From a virus (Duplodnaviria; Caudoviricetes), in IMG/VR virus record IMGVR_UViG_2690315754_000004, positions 1,612 through 65,611 of that record: a stretch of 64,000 bases of DNA. One strand, given 5' to 3'. The stretch's first letter is position 1. Every line of letters begins with the position of its first letter. The translations under genes and the position numbers were made by a program. The notes under the pieces were generated by a model. That model had not been told where the DNA came from. It did not search any database and saw only the letters and a program-made list of their open reading frames with translations. Positions 459 through 23,043 of this stretch are shown piece after piece.

Positions 459-666
459 CTATCCTTTCGCCACCGGCGTGCCGGGCAGGTGTTCAGCCCC
501 GGCCGGCGCCCGGCAACTCATCGCCAGCAAGCCACCGGAAACGACAGCCTTTCCCCTGCGGCGATAAACGTTGGACATTTTTTCCCACTTCATGTACATA
601 GCCACATTTGTTTCCATATTAAAACGGCACGTTAGAAAATCTTTCCACTTCAAGCGCGGAGGTGTC

Positions 667-2001: not shown

Positions 2002-2063
2002 CGCAGCGGCCACCGGCGCCGGCGCGCCCGGCGCACACCCGAACCAAGCGAGCGGGAAGATTC

Positions 2064-2258
2064 TCATGGCCAGATGCCCCTGTCCCGGGCCAGCCACTCG
2101 GGGATTTGCATGATGCAGTCCACATTGTTTGGCAGCATGCGCAGGTCCTTGACCAGGCTCTTGGGGATCCTCACCGTGCTCTCCCCGTCGTAGACGAACC
2201 AGCACGCATCCGTTTCGCCCTGCAGCTCGCCGCAAAACTCCACCGTCTTCACGTCCAT
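2064..2258 (-). CDS. Small phage early protein (MDVKTVEF...QIPEWLARDRGI)
   Basis: AGGAG RBS; part of a chain of overlapping small ORFs downstream of cro. Confidence 0.6.
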   Translation of the reverse strand: MDVKTVEFCGELQGETDACWFVYDGESTVRIPKSLVKDLRMLPNNVDCIMQIPEWLARDRGIWP

Positions 2259-2458
2259 GGCCGGGCTCCTTTCGCAGGGGGGATCGCCTTGGCCGCGTTT
2301 GTCCGGGCCGGGCAGCGGGGCGGCGCATCGGGCCGAAGATCGCAACTGTCCCGGCACCAGCGCGAGCCCGACTCCACGCACGCTGCGCAAAAGGCCGCGT
2401 GCAGGGCCCTTTTCCGGGCGAGCTCGGCCACTTCCTCGGGGAACAGAACGTGTCTCAT
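2249..2458 (-). CDS. Small Cys-rich phage protein
   Basis: AGGAG RBS; the start overlaps the stop of the upstream ORF (ATGA). Confidence 0.45.
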   Translation of the reverse strand: MRHVLFPEEVAELARKRALHAAFCAACVESGSRWCRDSCDLRPDAPPRCPARTNAAKAIPPAKGARPWT

Positions 2459-2703
2459 GGCGCCATCTCCTTTAAAGGGTGGACCCGGGCGGCCATGGAG
2501 GCCCGCCCGGGCGGGGGATAAGGAGGGGCCGATACTGGCGCCTCGGACCCGGGCGCTGGGGCGGCGGCAAAGCACGAGAGGGTGGCGGTCTCGCGCCTGG
2601 CGGCCGGTGGAAGATTGGCGATGGAGAACAGCAGATAGGCGATGCAGCCCAGAACGAGGATGAGAACGGCGGCCTGCCGGACGATGGCCTCAACCCTTGC
2701 CAT
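2455..2703 (-). CDS. Small membrane-anchored phage protein
   Basis: AGGAGG RBS; N-terminal hydrophobic helix. Confidence 0.5.
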   Translation of the reverse strand: MARVEAIVRQAAVLILVLGCIAYLLFSIANLPPAARRETATLSCFAAAPAPGSEAPVSAPPYPPPGRASMAARVHPLKEMAP

Positions 2704-2892
2704 GGCACCGCCTCCTTAATTCCTGGAAAAAATCATAATTGACCCAGATGCCGAACGACGCGCGGTCGCCGAGCCGCCGGTTGAACGCGTTCTGCTCGTC
2801 GTAGGTCATTTGCAGGTAGGCCAGCGGGCCCTCGCCGCTGCGGCCCATGCGGTAGAGCACGCACAAGTGCCTGTCCGGACCTGTGCACGGCG

Positions 2893-3375
2893 TCATGGCT
2901 CCCTCCGCGTGCCCGCGTCCAGGAGCTGATCGAGCTCGTGGCGGGCCTTGTCGTGGGCGTTTCGAATGCGGATCAGCTCGGTCGTCTCCAGCCGGCCGTC
3001 CTTTCGCGCCTCGCGGATCCGGGCGCCCAGCTCGCCGATGGCCACGGCCAGGTCGGCCAGCTCCAGGTCCGGGCACCCCTTGTCCGACGTGGCCGTGCCG
3101 TCTTTTTCCACCACCGCCAGGCCCAGGGGGGCGGCCAGAAGATCCAGGGCCGCGTGGGCCACGTCCCTGCGGCCGTGATCGTCCAGGGCGTCTAAAAACA
3201 GCGCCACCTGGTCGAGCACGTTTCGGCGCGTCACCCCGCAGTGGCGCGGATCGGCCGCCCACATCTGCATGTAGCGGGTCGTTCGGCCGAAAATCTCGTG
3301 CATCCGGCCGTCGGAAAGGGTTTTGCGGGCGATGTGGAAAATCTGATGGCTCTGGTATTGGTACCGGTACCGCAT
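2893..3375 (-). CDS. Phage regulatory CII-like protein
   Basis: Directly downstream of cro. Helical C-terminus ADLAVAIGEL...EARKDGRLETTEL resembles P2/186 CII-like proteins. Confidence 0.6.
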   Translation of the reverse strand: MRYRYQYQSHQIFHIARKTLSDGRMHEIFGRTTRYMQMWAADPRHCGVTRRNVLDQVALFLDALDDHGRRDVAHAALDLLAAPLGLAVVEKDGTATSDKGCPDLELADLAVAIGELGARIREARKDGRLETTELIRIRNAHDKARHELDQLLDAGTRREP

Positions 3376-3376
3376 C

Positions 3377-3631
3377 TCATCCCCCTTGGCCTGGGGTTCG
3401 TTTTGCGCCTGTTTCGAACTTTTCTGGGCAACAAGCCCCCCGGTAAAGATCTGAAAGAGCGGCCCTGATCTCATCGGGCGTGCCGTCGAGCCAGAGCTGC
3501 GGTTCAGTGCAGGTCACCTGGGCCAGGCGTTTGGCAAGCTTCCAGGATGGTCGGCGACGCCCATTCAGAATGTTTGAAATGTACGGCTGTGTGGTGCCTG
3601 CGGCCTGGGCTACTTGGTTTTGTGTTTTCAT
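3377..3631 (-). CDS. cro: Cro-like XRE HTH regulator
   Basis: TQNQVAQAAGTTQPYISNILNGRRRPS HTH; divergent from the repressor. Confidence 0.8.
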   Translation of the reverse strand: MKTQNQVAQAAGTTQPYISNILNGRRRPSWKLAKRLAQVTCTEPQLWLDGTPDEIRAALSDLYRGACCPEKFETGAKRTPGQGG

Positions 3632-3644
3632 ACCTCGTTGAAAT

Positions 3645-3718
3645 ATTACGTGACGTAATGCAAGTCAAGCGAAAAATTACACCATGAAATGATTAACTGT
3701 GATATTTCACCTTGGAAT
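3645..3718. promoter_or_regulatory. Three operator-like 15-bp palindromes between cro and cI (OR-like switch)
   Basis: ATTACG-TGA-CGTAAT (3645-3659), ATTACA-CCA-TGAAAT (3676-3690), ATTTCA-CCT-TGGAAT (3704-3718). Confidence 0.7.
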
Positions 3719-4292
3719 GAATACTGATATCAAAAAATATAAGAAAAACTTCTGCTTAGCCGTTAAGAACTGGTTTTTTACCAAATATAACCCAGTTAAA
3801 AGAGGCGATGTAACTGCGGCTGCGGAATATTTAGAAATAAGCCAGCCTCTGATGTCGCTTATTCTGGCTGGCGAAAAATGGTGTGGGGAGGAAACTAAGC
3901 GCCGTGAAATCGCCCAAAAAATCGGCATCCCCTACGAAGAAATGATCGGCCTGAAAGCCGGAGGCAACGATCAGACGCCCTGCCCAACGGAAAGCACCTG
4001 CCCATCTGAACAAAACGAAAAGACCGTCGATGAATCGATGGCTGAATTGATGAAATTGCCCCCAAAGAAGAGGGGGATCGAAATCGTCATGCTCGCCGCC
4101 GCCAGCAACATGATCACGGACGTCCAGGTGTCGCATGGCGACCGCGAACGCAGCGACAAGTATTTCGGCCCCCTGAAACGCTATTGGGATGGCGAAATCA
4201 CCGAACAAGAACTATATGACGAGTCCTACCAATTCTTTAAAAGAATCAGGGAAAAAGCGGATAAACTGCTCAAGGAACATGGTCTGAAGTAG
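3717..4292 (+). CDS. CI-like repressor (HTH, no S24 peptidase domain evident)
   Basis: VTAAAEYLEISQPLMSLILAGEK HTH; divergent from cro and followed by an ImmA-like protease. Confidence 0.65.
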   Translation: MNTDIKKYKKNFCLAVKNWFFTKYNPVKRGDVTAAAEYLEISQPLMSLILAGEKWCGEETKRREIAQKIGIPYEEMIGLKAGGNDQTPCPTESTCPSEQNEKTVDESMAELMKLPPKKRGIEIVMLAAASNMITDVQVSHGDRERSDKYFGPLKRYWDGEITEQELYDESYQFFKRIREKADKLLKEHGLK

Positions 4293-4335
4293 GGACGTTT
4301 AAGATGCAAGCCGGTAATCATTCTTAGGGGTGGGA

Positions 4336-4890
4336 ATGATCTACACTGCTATCAAAACGCTTGAAAAGCGCTGGCCACTGTTCAACCGGGAACCTCTCAC
4401 AAAAGCGCACTGCCTCAAATTGCTCGAAGAGATGGGCGTCATCGCGCTTGAGGACAGGCAGGTGCCGGAAGCGATGGCCTTGTGGTACCAAAAAAAGGCC
4501 TTCGTGATCTACAATCCCCATCTGAGCGACAGCGACCTTGTGCTGAACATCGGGCATGAGCTCGGCCACTTCGCTCTCGGCCACATCAAATCCACCCGCC
4601 TGCCGATACTATCGCGCATATTCAGCAAAACCATAGAAGAAAAAGATGCCGGCATCATCGGATTTCTCATGTGGGCGCCGACCGCCGAGCTTTGCCGGAT
4701 GTACGACAAGGGGCGGCTCAATATCGAGGAGCTCTACCGTTACGTCAAATTCAGGGACGGTGACATCGAGGAGGACAAGGCGCTACGGCTGTGCCACAGC
4801 CGTATCCGGATTTTCAACGGATTGCAGCGAACCCTCCGGCAGCTCAGGATGCCGGTGCAATTCCGCGTGCCGCCGTATTTTGGGATCTAA
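4336..4890 (+). CDS. ImmA/IrrE family Zn metallopeptidase (antirepressor)
   Basis: HExxH motif (IGHELGH) with downstream EEKDA; adjacent to the repressor. Confidence 0.8.
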   Translation: MIYTAIKTLEKRWPLFNREPLTKAHCLKLLEEMGVIALEDRQVPEAMALWYQKKAFVIYNPHLSDSDLVLNIGHELGHFALGHIKSTRLPILSRIFSKTIEEKDAGIIGFLMWAPTAELCRMYDKGRLNIEELYRYVKFRDGDIEEDKALRLCHSRIRIFNGLQRTLRQLRMPVQFRVPPYFGI

Positions 4891-4935
4891 GCGGGGGGTG
4901 CTATGCGATCTGGGAACAGAAGACCCCTTTTTTAA

Positions 4936-6027
4936 TTATTTTATATATGTTGTTAAAATTTCAAGAATTTTGTCAGCATGTTGATAAATATCAACGGTTG
5001 ACTCGATCGGGATTCTTGTTTCAACTTTGTTAACATCGAAAACGCCGAGATATTTGTTTTTGCTGTTAAACCACAATCGACAAATTGGCTTCCTGTTATT
5101 ATCGTCAAGCAGAATGCCCATATAGGATTTGGTGTCTCTGTGCATGATTCGTGAGGGAACAACTTTTTTTGCGCAGATTGCCCTCACTATATTCCAGCCA
5201 TCCAGTTCTTCATCAGTAGTAACTATGTCATTTCGTGTCGATTCCTGGCCTGATTCAGAAGCTACCTCTGGAACGTTTTCAGTTGTTACATTTTCATTTT
5301 CCAGAGCGTAACGGAGTCGGTCGCTTACCTTATCGCTAAGAAACTGATGAAAAGCCTTTGCCACCAACGGGGTAAATAGTTCTCTGTAAGTGGATGTAAA
5401 TCTGCTGCTTGGAATTACCCGCTGAAAAAAGAACCTTACAAACTCTTCATCGGGGGACTCTGATTGAATTTGAATAACCTTTTTAATCTCGGAGGTATAT
5501 TTGAGCTCACTTGCAGTACTGAGCATGCGATCAAGGTCAAAATCCTCTTTTGCCATTTTTTTGACCTCGAACAGGGCATTAGATTTTGGGTTGGAAAGGT
5601 CAAGTTCTAAAAATGGCTTGTTATCCATCCTATTAGTTTCTTCTAGATCAGAAAAAAATTTGTATTGGATTCCATTCGTTAAAATGGCAATGCGCGCTTT
5701 TGTTACGCTAAAGTAACGATAAAGCTGGCTCATGCATTCTTGGGAAAGGTCACTATTTGCCTTTTTGCATTCGAATAATATGATGGTCTCTCCATCTCGC
5801 ATTATTGCATAATCAACTTTTTCCCCCCTTTTAGTACCAATATCAGCAGTGAATTCTGGAACGACCTCCTTGGGATTAAAAACATCATAGCCAAGGGCAG
5901 CAATGAAGGGCATGACAAGAGCGTTCTTGGTGGCTTCTTCAGTCTGTAGGTGGTCTGTCAATTTTGGAAGCCTCTGGATCAATGCTGCAATTTTTTCATC
6001 GAAGCTCATGTTTAATCCTCCATTCAT
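4936..6027 (-). CDS. HsdR N-terminal-like PD-(D/E)xK restriction endonuclease-like protein
   Basis: TEEATKNALVMPF..LGYDVF, EVVPEF, KVDYAI, FECK and AILTNG motifs. The start may be 6009. Confidence 0.8.
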   Translation of the reverse strand: MNGGLNMSFDEKIAALIQRLPKLTDHLQTEEATKNALVMPFIAALGYDVFNPKEVVPEFTADIGTKRGEKVDYAIMRDGETIILFECKKANSDLSQECMSQLYRYFSVTKARIAILTNGIQYKFFSDLEETNRMDNKPFLELDLSNPKSNALFEVKKMAKEDFDLDRMLSTASELKYTSEIKKVIQIQSESPDEEFVRFFFQRVIPSSRFTSTYRELFTPLVAKAFHQFLSDKVSDRLRYALENENVTTENVPEVASESGQESTRNDIVTTDEELDGWNIVRAICAKKVVPSRIMHRDTKSYMGILLDDNNRKPICRLWFNSKNKYLGVFDVNKVETRIPIESTVDIYQHADKILEILTTYIK

Positions 6028-6051
6028 TCATAGCGCTCATTTTTCTTTTGG

Positions 6052-6112
6052 AGCTAACGACAAGCTGTCGGGCGGCATGGCCCTCGCCGTACCGACCAGC
6101 GTCAGGTTAGGC
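6052..6112 (-). other. attC: attC site 1
   Basis: Minus strand: R'' GCCTAAC, L'' GCTGGTCG (extra base), L' CGACAGC, R' GTTAGCT. The gene stop TAA lies inside R''. Confidence 0.9.
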
Positions 6113-6817
6113 ATTTTTTGGTATCCAGTTTAGCTGATTAGCATGAAGGAACTCTAACGTATTGTTATATTTCGTTCTATTTTTTTCGTCAGCCTTACGC
6201 TTCATTGCCTCTAGTGGCCTGATGAATACACTTTGTCCGTTTATTTGCCCGTTGTTGAAAGCAAAGGCATAGACTGGGCCGCTCAATTCTGAATTAATAA
6301 TCCCATCGCCAGGTATCATCCTGTAGACTAAGCGTTCATGAGCTGGCAAGCCTATTCGATCTAGTTGCTTGATTGCGGACGGAGTAAGAACGAACCCTAA
6401 CCAATTTTGGCCTTCTCCATATCGGTAGGCCTCAATGAGTGCTGGGCCTATAAATACGTTGCGTTCAAGTTGAGTGTACAAATCACCGCAAGAGATGGCT
6501 CCACGAACTGGGATTTGATTCATAATCAATTTTTGAAAGAAAAGGCGACCGGCTTGCTCAACTAAAGCGAATTCTTGTGCGGAATTCGACTGTGAAAAGA
6601 TTATAAAAGTGTCAGAAAACCACGAAAACGAAATACCATGTTTTCCTTTATCGTTACGCGAAATATCTATGCTATCGAGCGCTTTCTCGTATAGAGGAAG
6701 TATCTGGTTAATGCTTTTAGTTTCGACTTGTCGTGCGAATCCAAGTAAATCTAAATAGCAAAACCATCTAGATCGATATCTTAATTCTTTCGGTAAATTT
6801 ATCTTCATCGCGTCCAC
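6107..6817 (-). CDS. Class III nucleotidyl cyclase-like protein (cassette)
   Basis: YLDLLGF, FSDT, VRGAI and GPALIEAY..E motifs match the adenylate/guanylate cyclase fold. Confidence 0.65.
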   Translation of the reverse strand: MDAMKINLPKELRYRSRWFCYLDLLGFARQVETKSINQILPLYEKALDSIDISRNDKGKHGISFSWFSDTFIIFSQSNSAQEFALVEQAGRLFFQKLIMNQIPVRGAISCGDLYTQLERNVFIGPALIEAYRYGEGQNWLGFVLTPSAIKQLDRIGLPAHERLVYRMIPGDGIINSELSGPVYAFAFNNGQINGQSVFIRPLEAMKRKADEKNRTKYNNTLEFLHANQLNWIPKNA

Positions 6818-6818
6818 T

Positions 6819-6883
6819 GCCTAACGTCGTCTTCAGGGGCTGCAACGGCCTATCAGCAGTCCGACTGAAAGATATGGTTAGAG
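6819..6883 (-). other. attC: attC site 2
   Basis: R'' CTCTAAC ... TTTCAGTC / CCCTGAA ... R' GTTAGGC, with inner hairpin CTGC/GCAG. Confidence 0.85.
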
Positions 6884-7831
6884 GTTCTCGTTCGATTTTA
6901 CTTTTCGCTGTATTTCTACAACCATGCTTCTAAAGTCCTTTTGATCTTCGGAAAAAATAATGTCCATCACATAATCGATTGGAACAATTTTGGTGATGCC
7001 TGTATTTTCAATCAACAGAAGCTTTTCGTGCTGTTGCTCCTGATCAGTTTTTACTTTGTCCATTCTTAATGGGCTTGGTACAAATTCAGTAACAATTCCT
7101 AACAATCCAAATCTCCACCCTGCAAGCAATGGCCCTTTTTCCGAACGCTCTATAAGAACATACGCTGGACCGCCGCTGTTACCACCAAATGCCTGACAGT
7201 CAATGAAATATGCTTTTTGCTTTCCTCCAGGAAGCATTATCTCGCTTTCAGGAATTAATGATATAGTCCCGAATCTAGAAAGAACCATATTTGGTCCTTC
7301 CTCAGCAAATATGTATGGAACCAATCCTAAGGTAAATACCTGGTCTCCTTGTGCCACTTTGTATTTCTTTAGCCACTCAGAAGATGCAATAAACTCATCA
7401 TCAGATGTTTCAATGGGCTTTACCCCAATATCTAATCTATCCATAATATTAAAAATATTTAATAGGGCAACCGCAAGATCGATCGACTCGTTTGGGTGCT
7501 CTATCCATCTTTTTCCCTTAATAGTATAGGTGGGGAAATTGATTATTTCTGCCCCTATTTTTTCTTTCAAATTGAATCTAATTGAAAGAGGGGTCGATGG
7601 ATTTTCAAGAACTGGTTTGATTACATGTTTGGCAGATATTAAGTAGCAGAAATAGTTATTGTCTTGCTTCATAAAGAGCAAGAAACCTGTACCTACAGGT
7701 TTCCTATTTTTCATAACGAAGACGCAGGAATTTCTTACCCATTCTGGGATTGTAAATACCCCAGCTATAGTGGTTTGACAGAGCGTAAACAATAGAACAA
7801 ACGTAATCGTAACCATCTTTACAATACGCAT
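6878..7831 (-). CDS. Secreted trypsin-like serine protease (cassette)
   Basis: Signal peptide; GTGF, SAKHV (His), IDLA (Asp) and GGNSGGP (Ser) catalytic triad. Confidence 0.85.
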   Translation of the reverse strand: MRIVKMVTITFVLLFTLCQTTIAGVFTIPEWVRNSCVFVMKNRKPVGTGFLLFMKQDNNYFCYLISAKHVIKPVLENPSTPLSIRFNLKEKIGAEIINFPTYTIKGKRWIEHPNESIDLAVALLNIFNIMDRLDIGVKPIETSDDEFIASSEWLKKYKVAQGDQVFTLGLVPYIFAEEGPNMVLSRFGTISLIPESEIMLPGGKQKAYFIDCQAFGGNSGGPAYVLIERSEKGPLLAGWRFGLLGIVTEFVPSPLRMDKVKTDQEQQHEKLLLIENTGITKIVPIDYVMDIIFSEDQKDFRSMVVEIQRKVKSNENL

Positions 7832-7839
7832 ATGCTCTC

Positions 7840-7900
7840 CTTTAACGTCTTTCTTTGGGGCGGCATGATCCTCGCCGTCCCCAACAGAAAAATGCTATGT
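7840..7900 (-). other. attC: attC site 3
   Basis: R'' ACATAGC (variant containing the TAG stop) and R' GTTAAAG. Shares the GGGCGGCATG..CTCGCCGTCCC core (plus strand). Confidence 0.8.
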
Positions 7901-8767
7901 GCGCATTTTATAAAGGTTTTCATTAATTTCAAAGATCGCTGCCTTAAGGACCTGCAAACATATCTTAGCTGTATGCTCTCTTGGATTAAAACCTGAACTC
8001 ATCTGCTCGAACGGATGTATATAATTCCTGAAATCCCTTAATGAGTGACTAAATTTTTGAGTATCATGTTGTATAAGGCCAAGATCTCTTGCTACATCGA
8101 TAAAAGCGCTAAGGCTCCAATCATGGAACTGCTTAACTTTTCCGTTTCCATCTTTGGGTGATGATTTGGCCATATTGAAATTTTTTGGATACTGAATGGC
8201 AAGACCCAAAAAAATACCTTCAAGGGTACTACCTGCAAGAAGAATAACTGCTAAAGGCGATCCAGATGAGAAGCATTTTTCAATCTCTTTTATTCTATAT
8301 TGCAAAACATCTGAAACAACACCTTCAAGCCCTATACCTTTAACATTCACGTCATTGAATTCTCGATTGAGAAAATCATTCTCTGTTTCTTCAGCAATGT
8401 CGCAATCATCAATTTCAACTTTATCCAGTTTTTGAAATATGATATCTGCGCCATTCCGTACAACCTTCCATTTATCAAAGGCCAAGAATTGGTTAAAATC
8501 TTTTATATATGAGTCCAGCGCACCATACTGGCCGATAAAATTGACTGGTGCAAATACATTCTTTATACATTTATCTAATTCTGGAGTGCCATTAATCACC
8601 TCTAATTTTTGATCCGTGAAATACCAACGCGAGGGAAAACCTTGTCCATAAGAATCATTAAAACCCAATTCATTAAAAAATTGAACAATCTTAGGTCCAG
8701 ATCTGTATTCCGTCTCCTCATTTATTAGCTGTCTGAGTTTTTCTAATGTCTTCTTACTAAGAATCAT
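7895..8767 (-). CDS. AbiJ-NTD-like plus HEPN (RNase) protein, abortive-infection-like (cassette)
   Basis: C-terminal HEPN Rx4H motif RNYIH and AVILLAGSTLEG helix; N-terminal YRSGPK..FF..GF.D.YGQGFPSRW. Confidence 0.65.
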   Translation of the reverse strand: MILSKKTLEKLRQLINEETEYRSGPKIVQFFNELGFNDSYGQGFPSRWYFTDQKLEVINGTPELDKCIKNVFAPVNFIGQYGALDSYIKDFNQFLAFDKWKVVRNGADIIFQKLDKVEIDDCDIAEETENDFLNREFNDVNVKGIGLEGVVSDVLQYRIKEIEKCFSSGSPLAVILLAGSTLEGIFLGLAIQYPKNFNMAKSSPKDGNGKVKQFHDWSLSAFIDVARDLGLIQHDTQKFSHSLRDFRNYIHPFEQMSSGFNPREHTAKICLQVLKAAIFEINENLYKMRT

Positions 8768-8802
8768 TGTATTACTCTAATTTCACATGCATTAGTGCAT
8801 TA

Positions 8803-8959
8803 GGGGACATACATGAAAGTATAAAAAAACATGGACGGTGTACAGGGTGTACAGGGACGCCTTCAGATTTGTACATTTGCAATCCATTTTCTGCAATATA
8901 GCTCGGGTAATGTAAAAATCCGAAGGGCGTCCCTTAAATCCACGTCCCTTAAATCCCCC
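8803..8959. repeat. REP/MITE-like element, copy A
   Basis: GGGACGCC..TTC / GAAGGGCGTCCC inverted repeat (8854-8933) with stuttered terminal copies; similar to copies B and C. Confidence 0.7.
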
Positions 8960-9014
8960 AAAATTATAAAGCCAGAGATTTTTAAAATTTTTTAATTTAA
9001 ATCTTCGTTAAAAA

Positions 9015-9076
9015 GTATAACGGCATTGTCACGGGCGGCATGCGCCGCTGCCTTCCCGTTGACATTTTGGTTCGAT
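9015..9076 (-). other. attC: attC site 4
   Basis: R'' ATCGAAC, ATGTCAAC/GTGACAA boxes, R' GTTATAC. Confidence 0.85.
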
Positions 9077-9081
9077 GATTC

Positions 9082-11460
9082 CTATGGAGCTATATCAAGT
9101 GCACGATGGAATGCAGGATGCACATAAAATGCTTTCTTTGAACTTTCTATATTTGGTAAATAAATTTTTAATTTTTCAATATCATATGCCAATTCGAATG
9201 AATATTTAACTTCATCACCAAATTTCACGCCTAAAAACGAAAACCATAGCAAAATATCTATAATCTCATCTATATTTTCAGACTGCACATTCGAGTCCAG
9301 AAAAATTAACTCTATGTCATCTCTAGAAATACTCGGTTCTTTTCCAATGAACAGCTGAATTAATTTAGGATATTTTGGGAAAACGTCTCTGATTTCATAC
9401 TTCAAGTTATTAAATTCATCTTCAGAGTAGCCTTTCTCCGCAAATAATATATCATCTTCAGTAACCCGATTATGCTCTCTGCTAATTGCCGTTTGAATAC
9501 ATTTTGTTATGAAATTAAGAACAGACCTTGGATGGTAAAATGACCTTTCCAGAATATATCTAAAAGATTCCATTCCTCCAACATGAACCTCAAATAATTT
9601 TTGCCAAATATCCCTAAAATTTGTATCTATTATTCCTTCCGTTGCAACAAACCTTTTTCGTACCAGCTCCTCAAGTAATATCTGATCAGACCAATCGAGG
9701 TTCGCAATTGATTCCTTACCTCTATCTGGCGTATGCTCAACCAAAAGATCACAAATATCTTTCCGCAGAAAAACTACACTATTAAAATTCACATCGTTTG
9801 ATTCTAATTGACGTTGTATTTTTCTAGTGGCATTTAATAAGCTTCTAACTATGGCTATATCTGCTTCTGTTGCCCCCTTCATAGACCAGCCCTTATCAAT
9901 ATTATCAAATAATAGCCAAACTTCTTCTTTGTCTTTTATGTGCCCAATCACCAAGTCATTTAATTCTTTTACCTCAGATTGATATATCATACGGGTTATG
10001 TCTGGGGACTTAAGTTTTCCCTGCAGTTCTTTAGGATATGCATTAACAATTTTTTCGACAAGTGCGAGAATGCGTTCAGAGAAATCCCCACCAGAATCAT
10101 ACTGATGCTTTTCAAATTCAAATTTCAAGTTATCGTAATTTTTTAAACTTCGCGGATCCTGCCATGCACTACCGCGTTTGTTTTCAAGAATCTTTTTTGA
10201 AAGCTCCAAAAGGATCAGATAGTTCCAGAACGATGTCAATGTGTGCAACTGCAATCCTTCGCTCAAATTATCAATTACAAACTCTTTGAGTTTCGTAAAA
10301 TGGTGTCCTTCTGGTTTTAAATCCAGAACTATTGCATTTTTATTGTTAAGGACATCATTTCTAACGCCATAAAATATGGCTGTTTTGCCAGATCCTTTTC
10401 GTCCTACAACTAATCTTGTATTTCCTGACCTAGTTTGAAGAAACTGTGGAGTTTTTACGAAATACTGCCTTAGCGACCTTATTTCATTTTCAGCTGCAAT
10501 ATTTCCTATATTTATTTTTTCTAAGAGTCCTTTTATTGGAGTACCCGTCAATTCAGGTTTATAATAAAGTGATTCTGAAACTTCTCTGACAAATTTGTTG
10601 ATAATATTAGGAATGGCATTATGATCCTGATAAATCACCATAACATCACGATAATCAATTGGCTGAATCGTATACCCTTCCTGCAACATAAGTACATGTT
10701 TACCTTTTGCCATCGCCAGTCCGCTAACAAAGGCGCACAAAGCGTTGTGTGTCTGAGCTCCGTCTCGATTTACGTCAATTAGATGCGCAATTACAGCTTT
10801 TGAATGGCTAACCTGTCTTATGGCTTCATATAAAGATAATCGCGTTGTCTCATTTGGGTCATAAGTTCGGAATCTAAATAAAGCAGATTTTTTTAGGGAA
10901 GAAATCAGTTTTACACTTCCATCAGAATTATAGGGGCTCCTTAGAAGGAAAGTAGGTTGGCTATCATCAATTGCGTGAGTGGATTCTTTTATGGGCGTAA
11001 ATGAATCTTTTCTAGTTACAATTTTCCGTAATTGTTGACTGTTTTGAAAATCTTCATATCCTAGTACGTCAAAAATTCCTAATTCTTCAAATATCTCTTT
11101 ATCCTTATTAAAAGAAGTATCTCTAACTGGAACTACGGGCTTACCCATGCCAATTGCATAGCCAATTTCAAATAAGACATTAAAATTTAAAGTCGTTATG
11201 TTTGCTACGACAAAATCTGAGCTATTGATTGCATCACAGATCTTGCAAAAAATTATTTGTCCAGTCGTTAGGAGGTCTTCCCAGGATTTCCAAGAAGCAG
11301 CTGATGAATGCTTTTGTAAATCTCGCACAGCTGATAAAACTGTTTGGGATAAGTGAGCTGGGGTGCTTGGATAGATAAAGAAACCGTTTAATGTCTGATT
11401 CTTAGGTAGTAAATCCTCACATTGGCCTTTCTTGTATTCGCAATACTTAGATACGACCAT
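9082..11460 (-). CDS. Tandem NDT/TIR-like domains plus P-loop ATPase (Sll1717-like), defence candidate (cassette)
   Basis: NFNVLFEIGYA nucleoside deoxyribosyltransferase-like motif and a second degenerate copy. Walker A GRKGSGKT, Walker B WLLFDNID. Confidence 0.7.
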   Translation of the reverse strand: MVVSKYCEYKKGQCEDLLPKNQTLNGFFIYPSTPAHLSQTVLSAVRDLQKHSSAASWKSWEDLLTTGQIIFCKICDAINSSDFVVANITTLNFNVLFEIGYAIGMGKPVVPVRDTSFNKDKEIFEELGIFDVLGYEDFQNSQQLRKIVTRKDSFTPIKESTHAIDDSQPTFLLRSPYNSDGSVKLISSLKKSALFRFRTYDPNETTRLSLYEAIRQVSHSKAVIAHLIDVNRDGAQTHNALCAFVSGLAMAKGKHVLMLQEGYTIQPIDYRDVMVIYQDHNAIPNIINKFVREVSESLYYKPELTGTPIKGLLEKINIGNIAAENEIRSLRQYFVKTPQFLQTRSGNTRLVVGRKGSGKTAIFYGVRNDVLNNKNAIVLDLKPEGHHFTKLKEFVIDNLSEGLQLHTLTSFWNYLILLELSKKILENKRGSAWQDPRSLKNYDNLKFEFEKHQYDSGGDFSERILALVEKIVNAYPKELQGKLKSPDITRMIYQSEVKELNDLVIGHIKDKEEVWLLFDNIDKGWSMKGATEADIAIVRSLLNATRKIQRQLESNDVNFNSVVFLRKDICDLLVEHTPDRGKESIANLDWSDQILLEELVRKRFVATEGIIDTNFRDIWQKLFEVHVGGMESFRYILERSFYHPRSVLNFITKCIQTAISREHNRVTEDDILFAEKGYSEDEFNNLKYEIRDVFPKYPKLIQLFIGKEPSISRDDIELIFLDSNVQSENIDEIIDILLWFSFLGVKFGDEVKYSFELAYDIEKLKIYLPNIESSKKAFYVHPAFHRALDIAP

Positions 11461-11482
11461 TGATGCTCTCCATTATATTAAA

Positions 11483-11544
11483 ATCGAAAGATGAGCTGTG
11501 GGGCGGCATGGCCCTCGCCGTCCCACACCAGCGAGTTGTTGGTG
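11483..11544 (-). other. attC: attC site 5 (R' G>T variant)
   Basis: R'' CACCAAC, core nearly identical to attC1, R' TTTCGAT. Confidence 0.8.
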
Positions 11545-11586
11545 TACCGGCTTTCGCTTATGTATATTCTTCAATTTGGCTAAGTT

Positions 11587-11707
11587 GGGGACGGGATACG
11601 GACGGGATACGGGACGCCCTTCATATTTGTATATTTGTAATATATTTTCGGACATATTATTTTAGTAATATGAACGGCGTGCCCTAAACCACGTCCCCTG
11701 AACCCCT
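11587..11707. repeat. REP/MITE-like element, copy B
   Basis: GGGACGCCCTTCATATTTGTA...TATGAACGGCGTGCCC with GGACGGGATAC tandem stutter. Confidence 0.65.
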
Positions 11708-11769
11708 AATTTTAATTCGGCCCTTTAATCCTCCGGTCAAGTTTAATTGGTTGTTCGGGATGACTTATG

Positions 11770-12192
11770 TCACCCAGTTATCCGCTTAACCAGCAAAATG
11801 AGTGAAACAAGCGCAACCGCGAATTGCATCGTAACGATATAATTGGTAGTGTTAAATCGACCAGTAATACCTTCTTTGGATTTCTTAAGCAAAGGCTCTA
11901 TTAATTCATAAAGACCGAGCTCTTTCTCGTAAGCTTTAATTATTTCAAACTTTTCTTTTTGTCGTCGTCTGTGATGCAGGGCTATAATCAGACCTGTAAT
12001 TGCAGTGCAAGATACGCCGATATAACCTACAACAAGGACAAAAGAGTCAACCCCTTTGATCTCTAAGCCAACAACACCGATGAAAAAAAGGATTGAGTAC
12101 TGAAGGACTTTCCATGTTTGGTCACGCATGTGGAAGTGATCCTGCCATTGAGTTTGTAGATCTTGAGAAATATTTTGCGGACTTGCGACCAT
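11770..12192 (-). CDS. Small multi-pass membrane protein (cassette)
   Basis: AAGGAG RBS and three hydrophobic segments. Flanked by R'-like GTTCGTG upstream and R''-like CCCGAAC downstream. Confidence 0.75.
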   Translation of the reverse strand: MVASPQNISQDLQTQWQDHFHMRDQTWKVLQYSILFFIGVVGLEIKGVDSFVLVVGYIGVSCTAITGLIIALHHRRRQKEKFEIIKAYEKELGLYELIEPLLKKSKEGITGRFNTTNYIVTMQFAVALVSLILLVKRITG

Positions 12193-12230
12193 TTTTATGT
12201 CTCCTTGACCAGCACGAACTGATTTGTGGT

Positions 12231-12347
12231 AGGGGCTTTAGGGGACGGGCGGTACCGGGACGCCCTGTATATTTGTAAATTTGCGATTCATTTTCTGCAA
12301 AATCGTTCGGGTAATGTATAAATGTGAAGGACGTTGCTTCACGTCCC
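12231..12347. repeat. REP/MITE-like element, copy C (abuts attC6)
   Basis: GGGACGCCC...ATTTGTA.ATTTGC.AT.CATTTTCTGCAA.AT.G.TCGGGTAATGTA shared with copy A. Confidence 0.7.
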
Positions 12348-12404
12348 AACGTGCTGCTTTGGGGCGGCATGCCCCTTGCCGTCCCCAACAGCAGGTGGTT
12401 GGGC
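12344..12404 (-). other. attC: attC site 6
   Basis: R'' GCCCAAC, CTGTTGGGGACGGC / GCCGCCCCAAAG stem, R' GTTGGGA. Confidence 0.85.
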
Positions 12405-12534
12405 CTCTCATTACATTAGTTCACAAGCCCAGAGCCAAGCTTACCAACTGTTAAGTAAGGGCAGCGGTGCAATAGTTCTGCTAAAGCGATAAGGTCGGAA
12501 GTCCTTTTTTCGCTCGGCGGCATGCCATATCCAT

Positions 12535-12651
12535 TATTTATTCTCATTGTTTTTGTCAGTTAAAAATTTAACACGATACTTGAGCAAAATAAAATATAGA
12601 AGACTTCCACCTACCCCTAATATTATGGAGATTATAAATATTGTTTTCATC
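12535..12651 (-). CDS. Possible 38-aa single-TM peptide (MKTIFIISIILGVGG...)
   Basis: AAGGAGG upstream and a hydrophobic helix; below the ORF-track cutoff. Confidence 0.4.
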
Positions 12652-13359
12652 TTTCCGTGCCTCCTTATCTTTAGATTCCCGACCTTATATATATCAAAGC
12701 ACACACCCTCGATTGTCTATAGCAGTCCAGCGTAAATTCATACGTATCTCTCCGGCTGCCCAACTTTAATATTAGTCGTCACGATCGTTTATAATACAAT
12801 CATATATTATCCATCAGGCATGCCTGTGGTCTGGGCGAATGACAATTATTCAGCAAATTGATTGAAACAAAAGCAAACATTATAAAAATATCGCCTAAAA
12901 CCATTTCGATGCACTTAGGTTCGATTGTCGATCTGTGATGGCCCCCGCCTCCAAATGAAAAGAAATCGTAAACATTCACTGTATAGTGGACAGCTAGAAT
13001 TTTTATCGCAGAGCATAATTGTTTGGCCCGATAGACCTGATGAAATAGAATTGGGGCCTTACCTGGGCCTTATCAGCACGCCCCTAATCCTTTGATTTAA
13101 TAACCCAGTATCAAAAAAGACATAGGCCAATGAAAAAAAAGACGCCGCTTCATCCTTTATCATCTATTATATTGCCATGAATATGGAGCAGGGATCGCCT
13201 GGTACCTATCGCCATGGCTTTCTTATGTCAATGAAATTATTGAAAAAGACATTATAACAAAATGTTAGAAGGACAATGAAGGCTGGATTGACGGGCCGGT
13301 GCCAATCAGGCTATCGATGGGACAAAGAGGGGGATTTGTTTTATCAGAGGTGACACACC

Positions 13360-14052
13360 ATGTGCGGCCGTTTCGTAGGATTTCGGAACCTTGAGCAGCT
13401 CAAGCCATATTTCCCCATCGATGAAGCCATCGGCGGGGAGGCGGTGGCCAACTACAATGTGGCGCCCACCCAGGAGATCCTGGCTATCGTCAGGCACGAC
13501 GGACGCAACATCCTGGACCGGTACCACTGGGGCCTGGTGCCCTTCTGGGCCAAGGACAAGTCCATCGGTTACAAGATGATCAACGCGCGGGTGGAAACCG
13601 TGGCCTCCAAGCCCAGCTTCCGGGAGGCCTTTAAAAAACGGCGCTGCCTGATCGTGGCCGACGGCTTTTACGAGTGGGCGGGCAAGAAGGGCAGCCGGCA
13701 GCCGATGTACATCACCCTGCCGGATGAAACGCCGTTTGCCTTTGCCGGGCTGTGGGAGATCTGGCACGACAGGGAAAAAGATGGGGAAGCCTATCGATCG
13801 TGCACGATCATCACCCGGCCGGCCGCGGGGGGCATAGAGCGGCTGCATGACCGCATGCCGGTGATACTGTCTGCCCAGGCCTACGATCCCTGGCTCGATC
13901 CCGGCAACCAGGATGCGGCGCTGCTGGGCCGGTTGCTGGAAGAAAAGGCGCTGACCGAATTGACGTTTCACCCCGTGACCCGGGAGGTGAACTCGGTCGG
14001 GCACAACGATCCTTCCAACCTTGCGCCGGTGCAGATGGAGTTCGGGTTTTAG
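13360..14052 (+). CDS. SOS response-associated peptidase (SRAP/HMCES/YedK family)
   Basis: N-terminal MCGRF, YNVAP, WGLVP, INARVET, GFYEW and HDRMP. Confidence 0.95.
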   Translation: MCGRFVGFRNLEQLKPYFPIDEAIGGEAVANYNVAPTQEILAIVRHDGRNILDRYHWGLVPFWAKDKSIGYKMINARVETVASKPSFREAFKKRRCLIVADGFYEWAGKKGSRQPMYITLPDETPFAFAGLWEIWHDREKDGEAYRSCTIITRPAAGGIERLHDRMPVILSAQAYDPWLDPGNQDAALLGRLLEEKALTELTFHPVTREVNSVGHNDPSNLAPVQMEFGF

Positions 14053-14169
14053 CGCGATGGCCCGCCGTTCCAACCACTTTTTACTTGAACCGCTTGCAAT
14101 TCAGGCATGATGATTCTAAATGATTCAATCATTCGCAGCCCATTTTCATGTGTTTCGGGAAGATAAACG

Positions 14170-14376
14170 ATGAGAGAGTTCAGCGTGATCATCGAAAAGG
14201 ACGAGGATGGCTACTTTGTAGGCACCGTTCCGGCGCTCCGGGGTTGCCACACCCAGGCAAGGTCGCTGGATGTCCTGATGAAGCGGATCAAGGAGGCGAT
14301 CGAGCTTTGCCTGGAGCTGCAAGAACCGGTTTCAAACGAGTTCATCGGCGTTCAAAAGGTGGCGGTCAATTCGTGA
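14170..14376 (+). CDS. hicB: HicB-like antitoxin (short form)
   Basis: FSVIIEKDEDGYFVGTVPALRGCHTQA...IKEAIELCLE. Confidence 0.9.
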   Translation: MREFSVIIEKDEDGYFVGTVPALRGCHTQARSLDVLMKRIKEAIELCLELQEPVSNEFIGVQKVAVNS

Positions 14377-14597
14377 CCACAGTCCCATCGAGTACCGGCA
14401 GCCGGCTTGTCCGGGACTTGCGCAAATTCGGATTTGAAGTGGTGCGCGCCAAGGGCAGCCAGCATTTCCTTCAACACGCAGACGGCCGGTGCACGGTCGT
14501 TCCCATCCATAAAGGCGAGACCATCGGGCGTGGACTTCTTGCGCAAATATTGCGCGATTGCGACCTGGATGGAGAAGAGCTCCAAAAGAAATTATAA
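14373..14597 (+). CDS. hicA: HicA-like toxin (GSH motif reads GSQ)
   Basis: LRKFGFEVVRAKGSQH...VVPIH..TIGRGLLAQIL; GTGA overlap with hicB. Confidence 0.85.
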   Translation: MTTVPSSTGSRLVRDLRKFGFEVVRAKGSQHFLQHADGRCTVVPIHKGETIGRGLLAQILRDCDLDGEELQKKL

Positions 14598-14653
14598 AAG
14601 GGCGGCAAGATCATGCCGCCCAGGAGTATTCCGCGTATTTCAAATCCCGCCGA

Positions 14654-14845
14654 TTAACCTGTCTCCACCTCATTCAAAGCCGCCCGCCGCTCCTCCTCCA
14701 GGATCTTCGATCGCACTTCCTCATCGGCGATGGCCGCGTCCAGGTCGGCCACGGTGACCCTGCGGCCGGTGGCCAGGGCGAGCACGTCGGTGAGCAGTTT
14801 GAGGCCCGCGGCCCACAGGGCGGCCTCTTCCTTGGTCATTGCCAT
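14654..14845 (-). CDS. Small phage protein at the end of the late operon
   Basis: AAAGGAG RBS and phage-like codon usage. Confidence 0.55.
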   Translation of the reverse strand: MAMTKEEAALWAAGLKLLTDVLALATGRRVTVADLDAAIADEEVRSKILEEERRAALNEVETG

Positions 14846-14867
14846 GGGGGTTCTCCTTTCGATGGGG

Positions 14868-15566
14868 TTAGTTTTGGGTCAGCAGCACGAAGCCCGCGTC
14901 GATGAGCTGGTTTTTGGCCTTGCGGAACGCTTCCCGTTCGAACGTGTCGACGCGGCTCAGGGCCAGGGTGGCGCCCCAAAGATCCAGCGCCCGGCCCACG
15001 TCGTCGAGCAGGGCGTTGAACCGGCGGCGCTGATCGATGGCAAGGGACGCCTGGCTGTCGATGAAGCCTTGCTGGGCCTGGTTGTACCAGGTGCGCGCAT
15101 CCAGGTAGACGGCTTTGGCTATAGCGTGGGGGTGGGAGGTTTCGCTCATGATCTGGGAGGTTGCGGTCTGGTTGGGGGCGCAACCGCAAAACGAGAGGGC
15201 CACGGCGCCGGCCACGAGCAGGGCGAGCACCAGGGGCAGGGCGATCGCTCCGGCCTGGCCGGTTTTTTTGGCTTTGGCCTTCTGGCGGTACTTGCTCACG
15301 ATGGCCATGAGCACGCCGGCGGCGGCCAGGACGGATTCCACGGCGCCGAAGGCGGCCTGCTGGTCGTCGGGGCCGAACTCGATGCCCCGGCCCTGGAGGA
15401 TGAAGGCGGTGAGCACCAGGGCGGTGCCGCCGATGCGGCCCCACAGCACGCTGCCGATCCATGGGTCAGTTTTTTGGGGGTCTGTTTTAGGGGGATCGGT
15501 TTTTGGGAGATCTGTTTTTACGGGATCTGGTTGGGCAAGATTGGATTTCAGCGGTGCGGTTTTCAT
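14868..15566 (-). CDS. Holin-like membrane protein with internal lipobox (lysis module candidate)
   Basis: AAAGGAG RBS, two TM helices, then a signal-like segment ending LSFCGC. N-terminal KTDP repeats. Confidence 0.5.
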   Translation of the reverse strand: MKTAPLKSNLAQPDPVKTDLPKTDPPKTDPQKTDPWIGSVLWGRIGGTALVLTAFILQGRGIEFGPDDQQAAFGAVESVLAAAGVLMAIVSKYRQKAKAKKTGQAGAIALPLVLALLVAGAVALSFCGCAPNQTATSQIMSETSHPHAIAKAVYLDARTWYNQAQQGFIDSQASLAIDQRRRFNALLDDVGRALDLWGATLALSRVDTFEREAFRKAKNQLIDAGFVLLTQN

Positions 15567-15862
15567 GGCTTGGGCTTCTCCTTTGACGGGCTGCGGGTTG
15601 AAGGGTTTGACCGGCCGTTAACACCTGGGGGCCCGGCCGGGTAAAGTTCGTTATTTTTCCTGGGGCGAACCTGCCCGGGCCCGCCGCAGGGCCCTGTCCT
15701 TGGCCGATGCGATCTTGCGCAGGACGGCCGGGTCCATGTCGAAGGCGATGTGGCACCGGGCGCACAGGCAGGTCTTGGCCTGGATGCGGACGCCGCAGTA
15801 GGGGCAGATGCCGGTGATAGACTCGCCCCGGGGGCCTTTCATGGCGCTGTCCGGGACGGGTC

Positions 15863-16204
15863 TCATTGTTTCACCCCGGCATCGACGTTGAGCATCTTCA
15901 AGGCGAAGCGGATGCCGATCCACAGGAGGGTGCCGAAGCCCCCGGCGATGGAGACGGCGATGAAGCACGCCACCGCCCCGCCGATCTTTTCTCCCCGGCG
16001 CCGGATTTTGATCCAGGCCTTGATCGCGTCGCTGGCCTCCTCGATGCCCTTGTTCAGGTTGCCGTCGCCCATGTCGCGGAACCGGCCGACGAGGTGGCCC
16101 ATCTCGGCCTGGGAGGATGCGGCCAGGCCGCACATGCAGCTTCCCTGCATGGTCTTTTCGATGATCCGCGCGATCTCTTTTTTGTCGTCATCGGACAAGG
16201 CCAT
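15863..16204 (-). CDS. C-terminally anchored membrane protein (holin/antiholin-like)
   Basis: GAGGAG RBS and a single C-terminal TM; follows the tail genes. Confidence 0.55.
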   Translation of the reverse strand: MALSDDDKKEIARIIEKTMQGSCMCGLAASSQAEMGHLVGRFRDMGDGNLNKGIEEASDAIKAWIKIRRRGEKIGGAVACFIAVSIAGGFGTLLWIGIRFALKMLNVDAGVKQ

Positions 16205-16335
16205 GGGCCTTTACTCCTCGCTTCTGCTTATAGATGGATCATCCGCCATAGACGGCGATGGCAAGCGCCATGGCCAGGTCGACCAGCACCAGGATCAGCA
16301 GCGCCAGGCGCACCCGCGTGATCATGGCGGGCGCC

Positions 16336-16818
16336 TCAGCTCCAGGCGGCGACGGCCGCCCGCACCCAGGTATCGGCGGCCACGCAGAGGTAAAGATAGC
16401 CGGCGTCAAAGGCCATCTGGCCCGGGATGCCCGGATCGGCGGCCGACGCGGGCGGGTCCACCCATTGGGGCCGGCTGACCAGTTCCCAGGAGGATGGGCC
16501 GCGCACGGCCTCGGCGTTTTGATCCTGCACCCAGGCCCGCCAGCCGAAAGAGGGCGTGTGGTACTCCCAGGCGCCCGCCACGCGCACGGCGATCTCTCCC
16601 GCGTGGGCGGACCAGTCGCCGGTGGCGCCTGCGGGGATGATGTAGCGGTCGCCGTTGGCGGGCGAGGCCGGCGGGGCGGCGGTCTCCATGCTGATCACCG
16701 ACAGGTGGACGACGGCGCCGAGTTTCTTTAGATTGGCGTCCATGCCGGCCTTCCAGCCGGATTCGCGGAAGTCCCAGCCGTAAAAAAGGTTCAGGTTCGG
16801 GTCGTTTTGTGCGGCCAT
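16336..16818 (-). CDS. DUF2793-like tail fibre/tip accessory protein
   Basis: APPASPANGDRYIIPAGATGDW.AHAGEIA....GAW....P..GW.AWV motif. Confidence 0.75.
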   Translation of the reverse strand: MAAQNDPNLNLFYGWDFRESGWKAGMDANLKKLGAVVHLSVISMETAAPPASPANGDRYIIPAGATGDWSAHAGEIAVRVAGAWEYHTPSFGWRAWVQDQNAEAVRGPSSWELVSRPQWVDPPASAADPGIPGQMAFDAGYLYLCVAADTWVRAAVAAWS

Positions 16819-16823
16819 GGTTT

Positions 16824-19052: not shown

Positions 19053-19251
19053 GGCGCACCGCCTTCAATAACCGCCGGCACATGGCGTCGTCGATGCCTT
19101 CCAGCCGGGCGGCCTCGATGCCGTTTTTGACAAAATCGTTCCAATCGATGCCCCGGGCCGCGGCCCAGCGCCGCACCCCGCCGTGGCAGTAGCGCATGCG
19201 GCGGATGTCGCTCAGATAGATTCTGTCGGCCGAACGGTCGATCATGTGCAT
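19045..19251 (-). CDS. Small tail assembly protein
   Basis: YCHGGVRRWAAARGIDW.DFVKNGI motif within the tail-tip cluster. Confidence 0.7.
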   Translation of the reverse strand: MHMIDRSADRIYLSDIRRMRYCHGGVRRWAAARGIDWNDFVKNGIEAARLEGIDDAMCRRLLKAVRHG

Positions 19252-23034: not shown

Positions 23035-23043
23035 CTTTGCTTC

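Follow-up and report, generated by a model that had tools for sequence, protein, structure and literature searches.

Integrons are usually viewed as chromosomal or plasmid-borne, and phage-borne parts of them have so far been scattered cases; the locus described here raises the question of how an array of integron cassettes that has no integron integrase gene (intI) comes to lie in the middle of a prophage, and how its content changes. The window, a stretch of 64,000 nucleotides from a Caudoviricetes record (IMG/VR IMGVR_UViG_2690315754_000004, positions 1,612 to 65,611), belongs to contig C3 of a bacterial genome of 5.6 Mb in seven contigs (G000), and most of it is occupied by a prophage, E1 (positions are those of the window, negative numbers lying to its left). 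At 4936-13000, E1 carries an attI-like site followed by seven co-oriented cassettes with six attC sites, truncated at the distal end and without intI. That this is a real attC array inside a prophage is very probable. The reading preferred here, with a probability of about 0.6, is that E1 carries as cargo an integrase-less integron platform, which would have entered as a block or have lost its own intI, and whose content would be renewed by the integron integrase (IntI) of the host acting in trans and by exchange of blocks.

The six sites are imperfect palindromes of 61-65 nt on the minus strand, within the range of about 55-140 nt for attC sites, read by eye and then aligned (attC A to F, Table 1); they lie where a sequence-only reading of the window had placed them, with the outer limits of 6052 and 12404 matching exactly. 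Canonical R boxes (R'' RYYYAAC and R' GTTRRRY, with invariant AAC and GTT) are present in four of the six (A, C, E and F), and a ten-base core that had been reported as common to five sites is present in all except E. The genes that the sites separate are AT-rich (35-42% GC) and co-oriented, as had been noted: all open reading frames (ORFs) of the array are on the minus strand, every attC site comes after an ORF, and the stop codon falls within R'' for three of the six (6107-6817, 6878-7831 and 7895-8767). The complementarity of the R' box at the start of a cassette to the R'' box at its end, claimed for three cassettes, is exact for TTAGGC/GCCTAA and TTCGAT/ATCGAA and covers three of the four variable bases for TTAAAG/CTCTAA; a fourth pair, also exact, can be added (GTTGGGC at 12764-12758, with GCCCAAC in R'' of attC A). 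By our own reading of the four variable bases, the cognate start/end pairs are perfect in three of six cases, match at three positions in one and at two positions in the remaining two, whereas none of the 30 non-cognate pairs is perfect.

As single-stranded DNA, the bottom (plus) strand of the sites is predicted to fold so that an unpaired spacer separates an R stem from a long L stem, whose 3' arm contains unpaired bases. An L stem of this form is found in all six folds, and the R stem is part of the minimum-energy fold only of A, E and F. Compared with shuffled sequences, the folding energies have z-scores of -4.2 for A and D and of -1.1 to -2.1 for the other four; folding energy by itself is significant for A and D only, and would not carry the identity of the attC sites alone. 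Under a structure drawn from the fold of A, pairing extends to 72% of cells across the six sites, versus 62% in shuffles, and 7 of 22 pairs have changes on both sides.

A genome-wide nhmmer search with the six sites found only their closest sequence relatives, and structure-aware models were therefore needed. Covariance model R1 was built from the six sites of the window, and R3 from 18 matches beside host intI genes (16 sites and two opposite-strand echoes), with no window sequence in it; R3 is a host-family test of attC, not the standard attc_4 model of IntegronFinder. In genome-wide scans with R1 and with another model, R2, 150 of about 2300-2500 candidates were scored, which falls short of a full attC census. 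Within the window, R1 detects, besides the six sites, only an opposite-strand echo of A below E 0.26. Beside the four intI loci of the host genome, R1 has 12 matches at E<=0.01, without exception on the strand directed away from intI (seven of seven on the minus strand at L009, four of four on the plus strand at L011 and one of one on the minus strand at L010), and two more are located in a fifth region, L013. R3 has 13 matches at E<=1 in the 64-kb window, namely the six sites on the minus strand, six weaker echoes on the plus strand and one unrelated match (11.9 bits, E 0.89); the scores of the six sites range from 28.9 to 68.4 bits, each higher on the minus strand than on the plus strand. 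The sites of the window are most like those of the arrays on contigs C1 (94% identity over 47 nt) and C6 (89% over 54 nt). Rfam models at the gathering threshold match only an int-alpA RNA (62692-62761) in the whole window, leaving the attC sites unmatched, and at E<=1 on 4800-13400 they give two unrelated sub-threshold chance matches, none at the attC sites or at a 110-nt element described below. On this comparison of sequences and models, the six palindromes are attC sites of the same family as those beside the host intI genes; a search for a host intI with the same attC family, which the sequence-only reading had proposed, leads to four loci whose attC sites are linked to those of the window by both R1 and R3.

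E1 is a siphovirus-type prophage integrated at tRNA-Sec, with an integrase, att repeats, and head, tail and packaging genes. A direct repeat of 27-33 nt, corresponding to the 3' end of tRNA-Sec, is present at -1717, 44541 and 64026, and the intact tRNA-Sec gene is just to the right of the window (approximately 64031-64128, complement strand). Genes with PHROGs matches for tail, tape measure, head-protease, portal, large terminase, ParB-like and primase proteins form a minus-strand module, and the tail protein is approximately 41% identical to those of YuA-like Pseudomonas siphoviruses. The gene order of E1 is integrase, CII-like regulator, cargo (an M78-like gene first, then the array), a gene for a SOS-response-associated peptidase (SRAP; a name that we take from the N-terminal MCGRF of the product of 13360-14052), a HicA-domain protein and the structural module. 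The CII-like gene is the last conserved backbone gene to the left of the cargo, and the SRAP-type gene, which is divergent from the array, is the first to its right, where it is followed by the HicA-domain gene, two unmatched ORFs and then the tail genes. The earlier placement of the array inside a prophage therefore stands, with tRNA-Sec repeats on both sides of it (-1717 and 44541) and with both flanks syntenic in two other genomes.

The low-GC block begins at approximately 4936 and ends at 13000, with 35-42% GC versus 61-68% in the structural-gene region of the phage (15-33 kb), and at its head is a feature that the sequence-only reading missed when it began the array at attC A: a further, first cassette and an attI-like junction (Table 1). 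On contig C7, three blocks of the stretch that separates the intI start codon from the first integron cassette are collinear with the window at 13000-12958 (86% identity), 12880-12862 (89%) and 12790-12756 (80%), of which the first is 24 nt from the intI ATG in C7; the similarity of window and C7 ends directly after GTT. By its sequence, an end of similarity at GTT marks an attI junction at which the first cassettes differ, and the junction block, 80% identical to the C7 integron junction, is the predicted attI that heads the array. IntegronFinder classes an attC cluster without an integron integrase as a CALIN. Such a bare cluster had been proposed for E1, and the array resembles one in having at least two attC sites (six) and no intI nearby; unlike a CALIN, it retains the predicted attI and part of the spacer (approximately 240 bp), and is described more exactly as an integron with intI deleted.

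The absence of intI from the array is borne out by profile and translated searches. No match to TIGR02249 (integron integrase) was found in the window or within 20 kb to the left of it, and the intI of a complete integron is accordingly missing; on C3, even counting TIGR02249 matches of any strength, the closest is a weak one at a distance of approximately 290 kb. In tblastn searches of 12400-17000 with the four host IntI proteins, only chance-level matches were obtained (best E 0.009-0.03), with no remnant of intI. The predicted attI junction with its approximately 240 bp of C7-type spacer suggests that the platform came from, or was, an integron, rather than being assembled cassette by cassette at a naive phage hotspot; and since IntI cannot move the approximately 240 bp on the intI side of the crossover, either the platform arrived as one block or the phage formerly possessed intI. 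A promoter scan of the array was uninformative (28 sites versus 25.4 expected).

Related prophages indicate how the content of this position has changed. A homologue of ORF 14730-15644 is present in three of 100 relatives searched, all of the same genus. The prophage backbones of genomes G002 (locus L024) and G004 (locus L022) are collinear with the window on both sides of the cargo; DNA similarity to the window ends at 3447 and resumes at 13192 (G002) or 13340 (G004), with attC-sized matches only in between, and both genomes have 8-9.5 kb of low-GC DNA at the cargo position. R3 was run over 100 kb comprising the two cargo loci, two backbone loci and a host flank (L022, L024, L023, L025 and L015), with 10 matches at E<=0.1: five sites and one echo in the cargo of G002, three sites and one echo in the cargo of G004, and none in the 60 kb of backbone and host flank. 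All five sites of G002 are on the strand equivalent to the minus strand of the window, and each starts no more than 19 nt from the stop codon of the preceding ORF; one of the G004 sites is strand-ambiguous under R3 (18.9 versus 18.6 bits), and R2 matches it on the minus strand only. The arrays thus occupy the backbone position and orientation of the window array and have no cassette in common with it. This comparison of the locus across related prophages, another proposal of the sequence-only reading, points to the turnover that was suspected there: the cassette content of the locus probably changes within the phage lineage. No relatives were added by scans of viral contigs with ORF 2893-3474 and ORF 14730-15644, a method that detects close relatives only, and a scan of genome contigs added one, of 7.6 kb, from Desulfatitalea sp. 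UBA4791, which ends before the cargo and has no attC match.

There is no intI beside the arrays of G002 and G004 either, where only phage integrases match, at approximately 27-30% identity over long matches; TIGR02249 matches above the cut-off are located elsewhere in each of the genomes G002, G004 and G010. The heads of these arrays differ from that of E1. In G002, the 189 bp in front of the first cassette share 78% identity with the attI region of the G000 integron on C5 and 75% with that of the integron of G002 itself, and all three sequences diverge just past GGTTAT. In G004, BLAST finds 82% identity over 55 bp to the spacer between intI and attI on C1, and alignment with MAFFT extends this to several conserved blocks over approximately 390 nt. 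One backbone position is thus occupied in three species by a cassette array with a predicted attI at its head and with different, defence-like cassettes each time. The G002 cargo includes an AAA_15/GajA/AbiL-like ATPase, a NYN nuclease and a GmrSD_N/NsnA-like protein; that of G004 includes a ParA-like ATPase together with a RiboL-PSP HEPN protein in one cassette, and a TIR/SpbK-like protein.

An integrase able to act on the E1 platform would have to be supplied by the cell, and the host genome has four TIGR02249 loci, on contigs C1, C5, C6 and C7. The intI gene on C6 (186999-187922) is the only full match (394.7 bits versus a cut-off of 265), uninterrupted and without stops, and its translation presumably has the catalytic motifs and the extra segment specific to IntI. 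The C5 copy is split over two frames, the C1 copy has an internal deletion, and the C7 copy is interrupted by a stop codon; from their sequences these three look inactive, each in a different way. The intI genes at C1:498558-499721 and C7:136729-137790 also encode an N-terminal extension of approximately 110-125 residues before the TIGR02249 match.

Two other regions of the host genome bring phage and integron sequences together. L013 (C3:1386000-1401000) contains an attC array of the window family, with four minus-strand sites at 5551-10677 of that region, directly to the left of a generic tyrosine integrase, and a distantly related prophage is located at C3:1409548-1431422; L013 would be a second phage-integron neighbourhood in this genome. 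L028 (C3:1975000-1994999) contains a 240-bp remnant of an E1-type tail gene (C3:1986359-1986692, approximately 90% amino acid identity) 30 nt from an attC match of 40.3 bits, and seems to be what is left, after decay, of a second E1-like phage and its array.

In the proposed mechanism, the phage lineage would have acquired the platform from a chromosomal integron in one block, or the phage would once have carried and lost intI, and the platform would then have been retained in an accessory region beside the immunity genes. There, host IntI acting in trans could renew the content through attC x attC excision and through insertion by attI x attC or attC x attC recombination, and larger blocks may also be exchanged with chromosomal arrays; a lysogen would gain defence genes, and the phage could bring them to new hosts. 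Cassette-wise exchange in trans is made plausible by the four intact sites, the three exact start/end pairs and the intact IntI in the cell. That IntI in trans has been the main engine of turnover is a more tentative proposition, with odds that fall a little short of even. Bolder still, and unlikely, is the possibility that the phage lineage keeps the integrase-less platform as a dedicated acquisition locus, using the IntI of its current host, whose expression would probably respond to the SOS signal by which the phage itself is induced, and shuffling defence cassettes between species; if that were true, integrons and phages would be coupled as a system rather than by accident.

Several observations weigh against a platform renewed in this way. 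The crossover G of R' is replaced by T in attC B, R'' of attC D lacks AAC, and no terminal attC of the last cassette was found by eye (4800-4940) or by the models, the distal end being truncated; with these damaged parts, the array may be decaying. The three attI types of the three related prophages, at one locus and in one orientation, are not predicted by single-cassette turnover. The intI of C7, the integron whose attI resembles that of the phage, has a TAA stop and a divergent C-terminus. No second copy of any window cassette was found in the host genome, and no exchange between host arrays and the phage array is documented. The attC models are home-made, and R2 and R3 descend from matches of a model seeded with the window sites. 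The defence roles suggested for the cargo are based on family matches, several of them weak, and several cassettes are unmatched. The host is a sulfate-reducing bacterium, probably of the genus Desulfatitalea, the genus name coming from one related contig. Finally, the description of the locus as lying between the immunity and lysis ends of the prophage is borne out on one side, where the CII-like and M78-like genes are found; no lysis gene was identified in E1 by the profile scans.

Some of the same observations are central to the most serious alternative, which is that illegitimate or homologous recombination, on one or more occasions, brought part of a chromosomal integron (spacer, attI and some cassettes) into the accessory region of the phage, where it is now static cargo, replaced only as a whole block and without IntI activity. 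Such a fossil would account for the presence of approximately 240 bp that IntI cannot move, for three attI types at the same locus, for the truncated distal end without attC, for the damage to sites B and D and for the broken state of the cognate-type intI on C7; the neighbouring immunity-type genes also differ among the three prophages, as in ordinary mosaic exchange. The attI types in particular suggest that capture or replacement of blocks has been repeated, and speak for it at least as much as for the sampling of single cassettes. A wholly static block is nevertheless rather unlikely, because the R boxes are canonical in four of six sites and the start/end complementarity is exact in three of six cassettes, integron integrases are present in all hosts, and the three arrays share one position and one orientation; moreover, the attC sites resemble those of C1 and C6 while the attI is C7-like, which suggests that cassettes have moved between platforms.

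An array that lies outside any prophage, as a chromosomal attC cluster between two integrated elements or through a chimeric assembly, is very improbable. This explanation draws on the nature of the site, a hotspot with tandem elements (remnant E0, E1 and E2, described below), and on the sharp difference in GC content between the array and its flanks, but there is no copy of the att repeat between -1711 and 44545, and both flanks are collinear with prophages of two other genomes that have arrays there too. A paralogue at C3:369008-369552, in which position 4391 of the window is joined directly to 13599, with the M78-like and SRAP genes truncated and the SRAP part frameshifted, indicates that both flanks belong to one type of element. 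The junction of platform head and backbone is spanned by contigs from two metagenome runs, at 12962-13224 and 12962-13304. The sequencing runs listed include no RNA run; the two belong to three marine-sediment runs of one study, with word shares of 0.12, 0.09 and 0.00, whose contigs cover the backbone flanks and barely the interior of the cassettes, and give no evidence either way on the array itself; one contig (X1) also has the 4392|13599 joint, a form that exists as the in-genome paralogue. That the palindromes are some other repeat family resembling attC, such as REP-like elements or terminators, is scarcely credible: the weak z-scores of four of the six folds and the lack of Rfam matches would allow it, but sites of this family are arrayed next to four TIGR02249 loci and consistently on the expected strand, an ORF precedes each site, the start and end R boxes are complementary across cassettes, and an attI-like junction heads the array.

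With an integrase-less platform, renewed by host IntI and by block exchange, as the preferred reading, E1 can be compared with known systems. Temperate phages such as P2 and P4 have hotspots for defence genes and other morons, at which a fixed backbone position holds rapidly changing, low-GC, defence-like cargo. The cargo of E1 differs in consisting of integron cassettes with predicted attI and attC sites, which offer site-specific exchange. If host integrases act on such platforms, temperate phages would be a route by which cassettes, including anti-phage defence genes, pass between genomes, phages could renew their superinfection-exclusion cargo site-specifically, and the system would provide a tractable test of trans-acting IntI on an attI without its own intI.

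The sequence-only reading was right that integron elements are rare in phages, but such elements are already published: among the 10,705 phage genomes surveyed by Qi et al. (2023; PMC9892861) were 17 attC clusters that lack an integrase, three complete integrons and a single integrase with no cassettes, and five of six attC sites from virulent phages recombined with attI1 under IntI1. The nearest case in their account is the Shewanella sp. prophage M16-3, which has a complete integron and an integrase-less attC cluster, each with its own attI. Like E1, it combines an attI-headed attC cluster with flanking tail, capsid and terminase genes in a host genus that has chromosomal integrons; unlike E1, which has only a spacer remnant, M16-3 has an intact intI, and is regarded there as cryptic. 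As M16-3 is presented in that paper, E1 is also distinguished from it by a locus at which three related prophages, each from another species, carry arrays with differing attI types. The temperate Vibrio anguillarum phage Va_90-11-286_p16 likewise has attC sites of the host type, in that case a subset of the sedentary chromosomal integron; its integron is at the edge of the prophage and includes intI, with two attC sites as excision points, and looks like the outcome of imprecise or IntI-related excision (PMC9892861). The block in E1 is internal, with the integrase, a 569-amino acid ORF and the CII-like gene before the nearest att copy. Two preprints describe defence cassettes in sedentary chromosomal integrons (bioRxiv 10.1101/2024.07.02.601686 and 10.1101/2024.07.02.601719), which, as reported there, have in common with those of E1 and its relatives a small size, mostly one gene each, and a defence-like character (nucleases, ATPases, TIR-like and HEPN domains); the store of E1 differs in being phage-borne, and its defence role is assigned by family resemblance. 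Phage-borne attC clusters and integrons are therefore already known, and what is new here is a locus kept across a phage lineage with changing attI and defence-like cassettes. Literature searches returned a single, unrelated paper for Desulfatitalea with integrons and, for phage-borne integrons, nothing closer than Qi et al., whose 17 clusters might include related cases.

Table 1. Coordinates of the E1 prophage, its cassette array and its cargo genes in the window
Feature	Position	Strand	Evidence and remarks
Prophage E1, part in window	1..44567		Starts ~1.7 kb left of the window; 46 kb in all
E1 tyrosine integrase	-1610..-378		PF00589
CII-like regulator	2893..3474	-	PF06892 E 9.5e-4, phrog_101 E 6.5e-5; 86% DNA identity to L022 and L024
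Variable cargo region (immunity-type genes and integron platform)	3448..13191		Backbone similarity to related prophages stops at 3447 and resumes at 13192/13340
M78/IrrE-like peptidase ORF	4330..4890	+	Abuts distal array end; weak matches, PF06114 E 0.0027, phrog_87 E 3.8e-5
Last cassette	4936..6051	-	HSDR_N ORF 4936-6027, PF04313 E 3e-14
attC F	6112-6052	-	61 nt; R'' GCCTAAC, R' GTTAGCT; R3 64.9 bits
236-aa ORF	6107..6817	-	No family match in profile scans
attC E	6883-6819	-	65 nt; R'' CTCTAAC, R' GTTAGGC; R3 28.9 bits; central part unlike the other five
317-aa trypsin-like peptidase ORF	6878..7831	-	PADLOC PDC-S45 E 1.3e-17; Pfam Trypsin_2 E 7.9e-4, below cut-off
attC D	7901-7840	-	62 nt; R' GTTAAAG, R'' degenerate; R3 56.2 bits; R stem with non-standard pairs
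290-aa ORF	7895..8767	-	Short N-terminal PADLOC Stk2 match only, E 1.7e-9
attC C	9076-9015	-	62 nt; R'' ATCGAAC, R' GTTATAC; R3 34.6 bits
792-aa ORF	9082..11460	-	N-terminal nucleoside 2-deoxyribosyltransferase-like domain, PF05014 E 1.7e-7; Sll1717-family P-loop ATPase
attC B	11544-11483	-	62 nt; R'' CACCAAC, R' TTTCGAT; R3 48.0 bits; several non-standard pairs
140-aa membrane protein ORF	11770..12192	-	Weak PF24838 (8xMP), E 0.001
attC A	12404-12344	-	61 nt; R'' GCCCAAC, R' GTTGGGA; R3 68.4 bits
Cassette 0 (first)	12350..12763	-	Small ORF within 12534-12704; starts after G|TT of GTTGGGC, ends at R'' GCCCAAC of attC A
Predicted attI-like junction and intI-attI spacer remnant	12756..13000	-	Similarity to contig C7 integron
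SRAP-type gene	13360..14052	+	NF007413 E 1.6e-29; 86-87% DNA identity to L022 and L024
Partial tRNA-Sec 3' end	44541..44567	-	Right att copy of E1 and left att copy of E2

Many of the family-matched proteins of the cassettes look like anti-phage defence proteins, to judge from their profiles. The 792-amino acid ORF scores 323 bits against NF047389 (the Sll1717 family), for which the cut-off is 75. A non-coding element of approximately 110-140 nt is present on the minus strand within three cassettes (8817-8958, 11573-11709 and 12217-12347) and again at C3:1981710-1981823, making four copies in the genome; it has 10-bp inverted-repeat ends of the GGGACGCCCT / AGGGCGTCCC type around an AT-rich core, is absent from the arrays of the related prophages and has no Rfam match. 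Carried within cassettes, the element could function as a promoter or operator; alternatively, it could be a small mobile element.

Other features lie away from the array. The 569-amino acid ORF (619-2328, minus strand) contains internal DNA repeats with a period of approximately 150 nt and self-matches of 70-78%, and has no family match. Two islands of 33-44% GC are located at 33000-36100, between the terminase and portal genes of E1 (ORFs of 195 and 526 amino acids), and at 44600-47000, between E1 and E2 (ORFs of 176 and 321 amino acids); neither has an attC or PADLOC match, and the 195- and 526-amino acid ORFs also have no PHROGs match. The region C3:369008-369552 was considered as an empty site of the cargo and rejected, since what is left there is a decayed remnant with truncation of both flanking genes, which defines no insertion point.

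The tRNA-Sec gene has been a target for other elements as well. A second element, E2, is integrated in tandem at 44541-64056 (19.5 kb), with genes for portal, protease, major head, minor tail, tape measure, primase and large terminase proteins and an integrase gene (62645-64000) that overlaps the int-alpA RNA motif; its rearranged gene order and lack of distal tail genes indicate that it is probably a remnant. To the left of the first att copy is the remnant of a third element, E0 (-3500 to -1720, approximately 16600-18281 of L015), which contains an ORF with a CHC2 zinc finger (primase N-terminus) and 106 bp that are 88% identical to 44176-44280 at the right end of E1.

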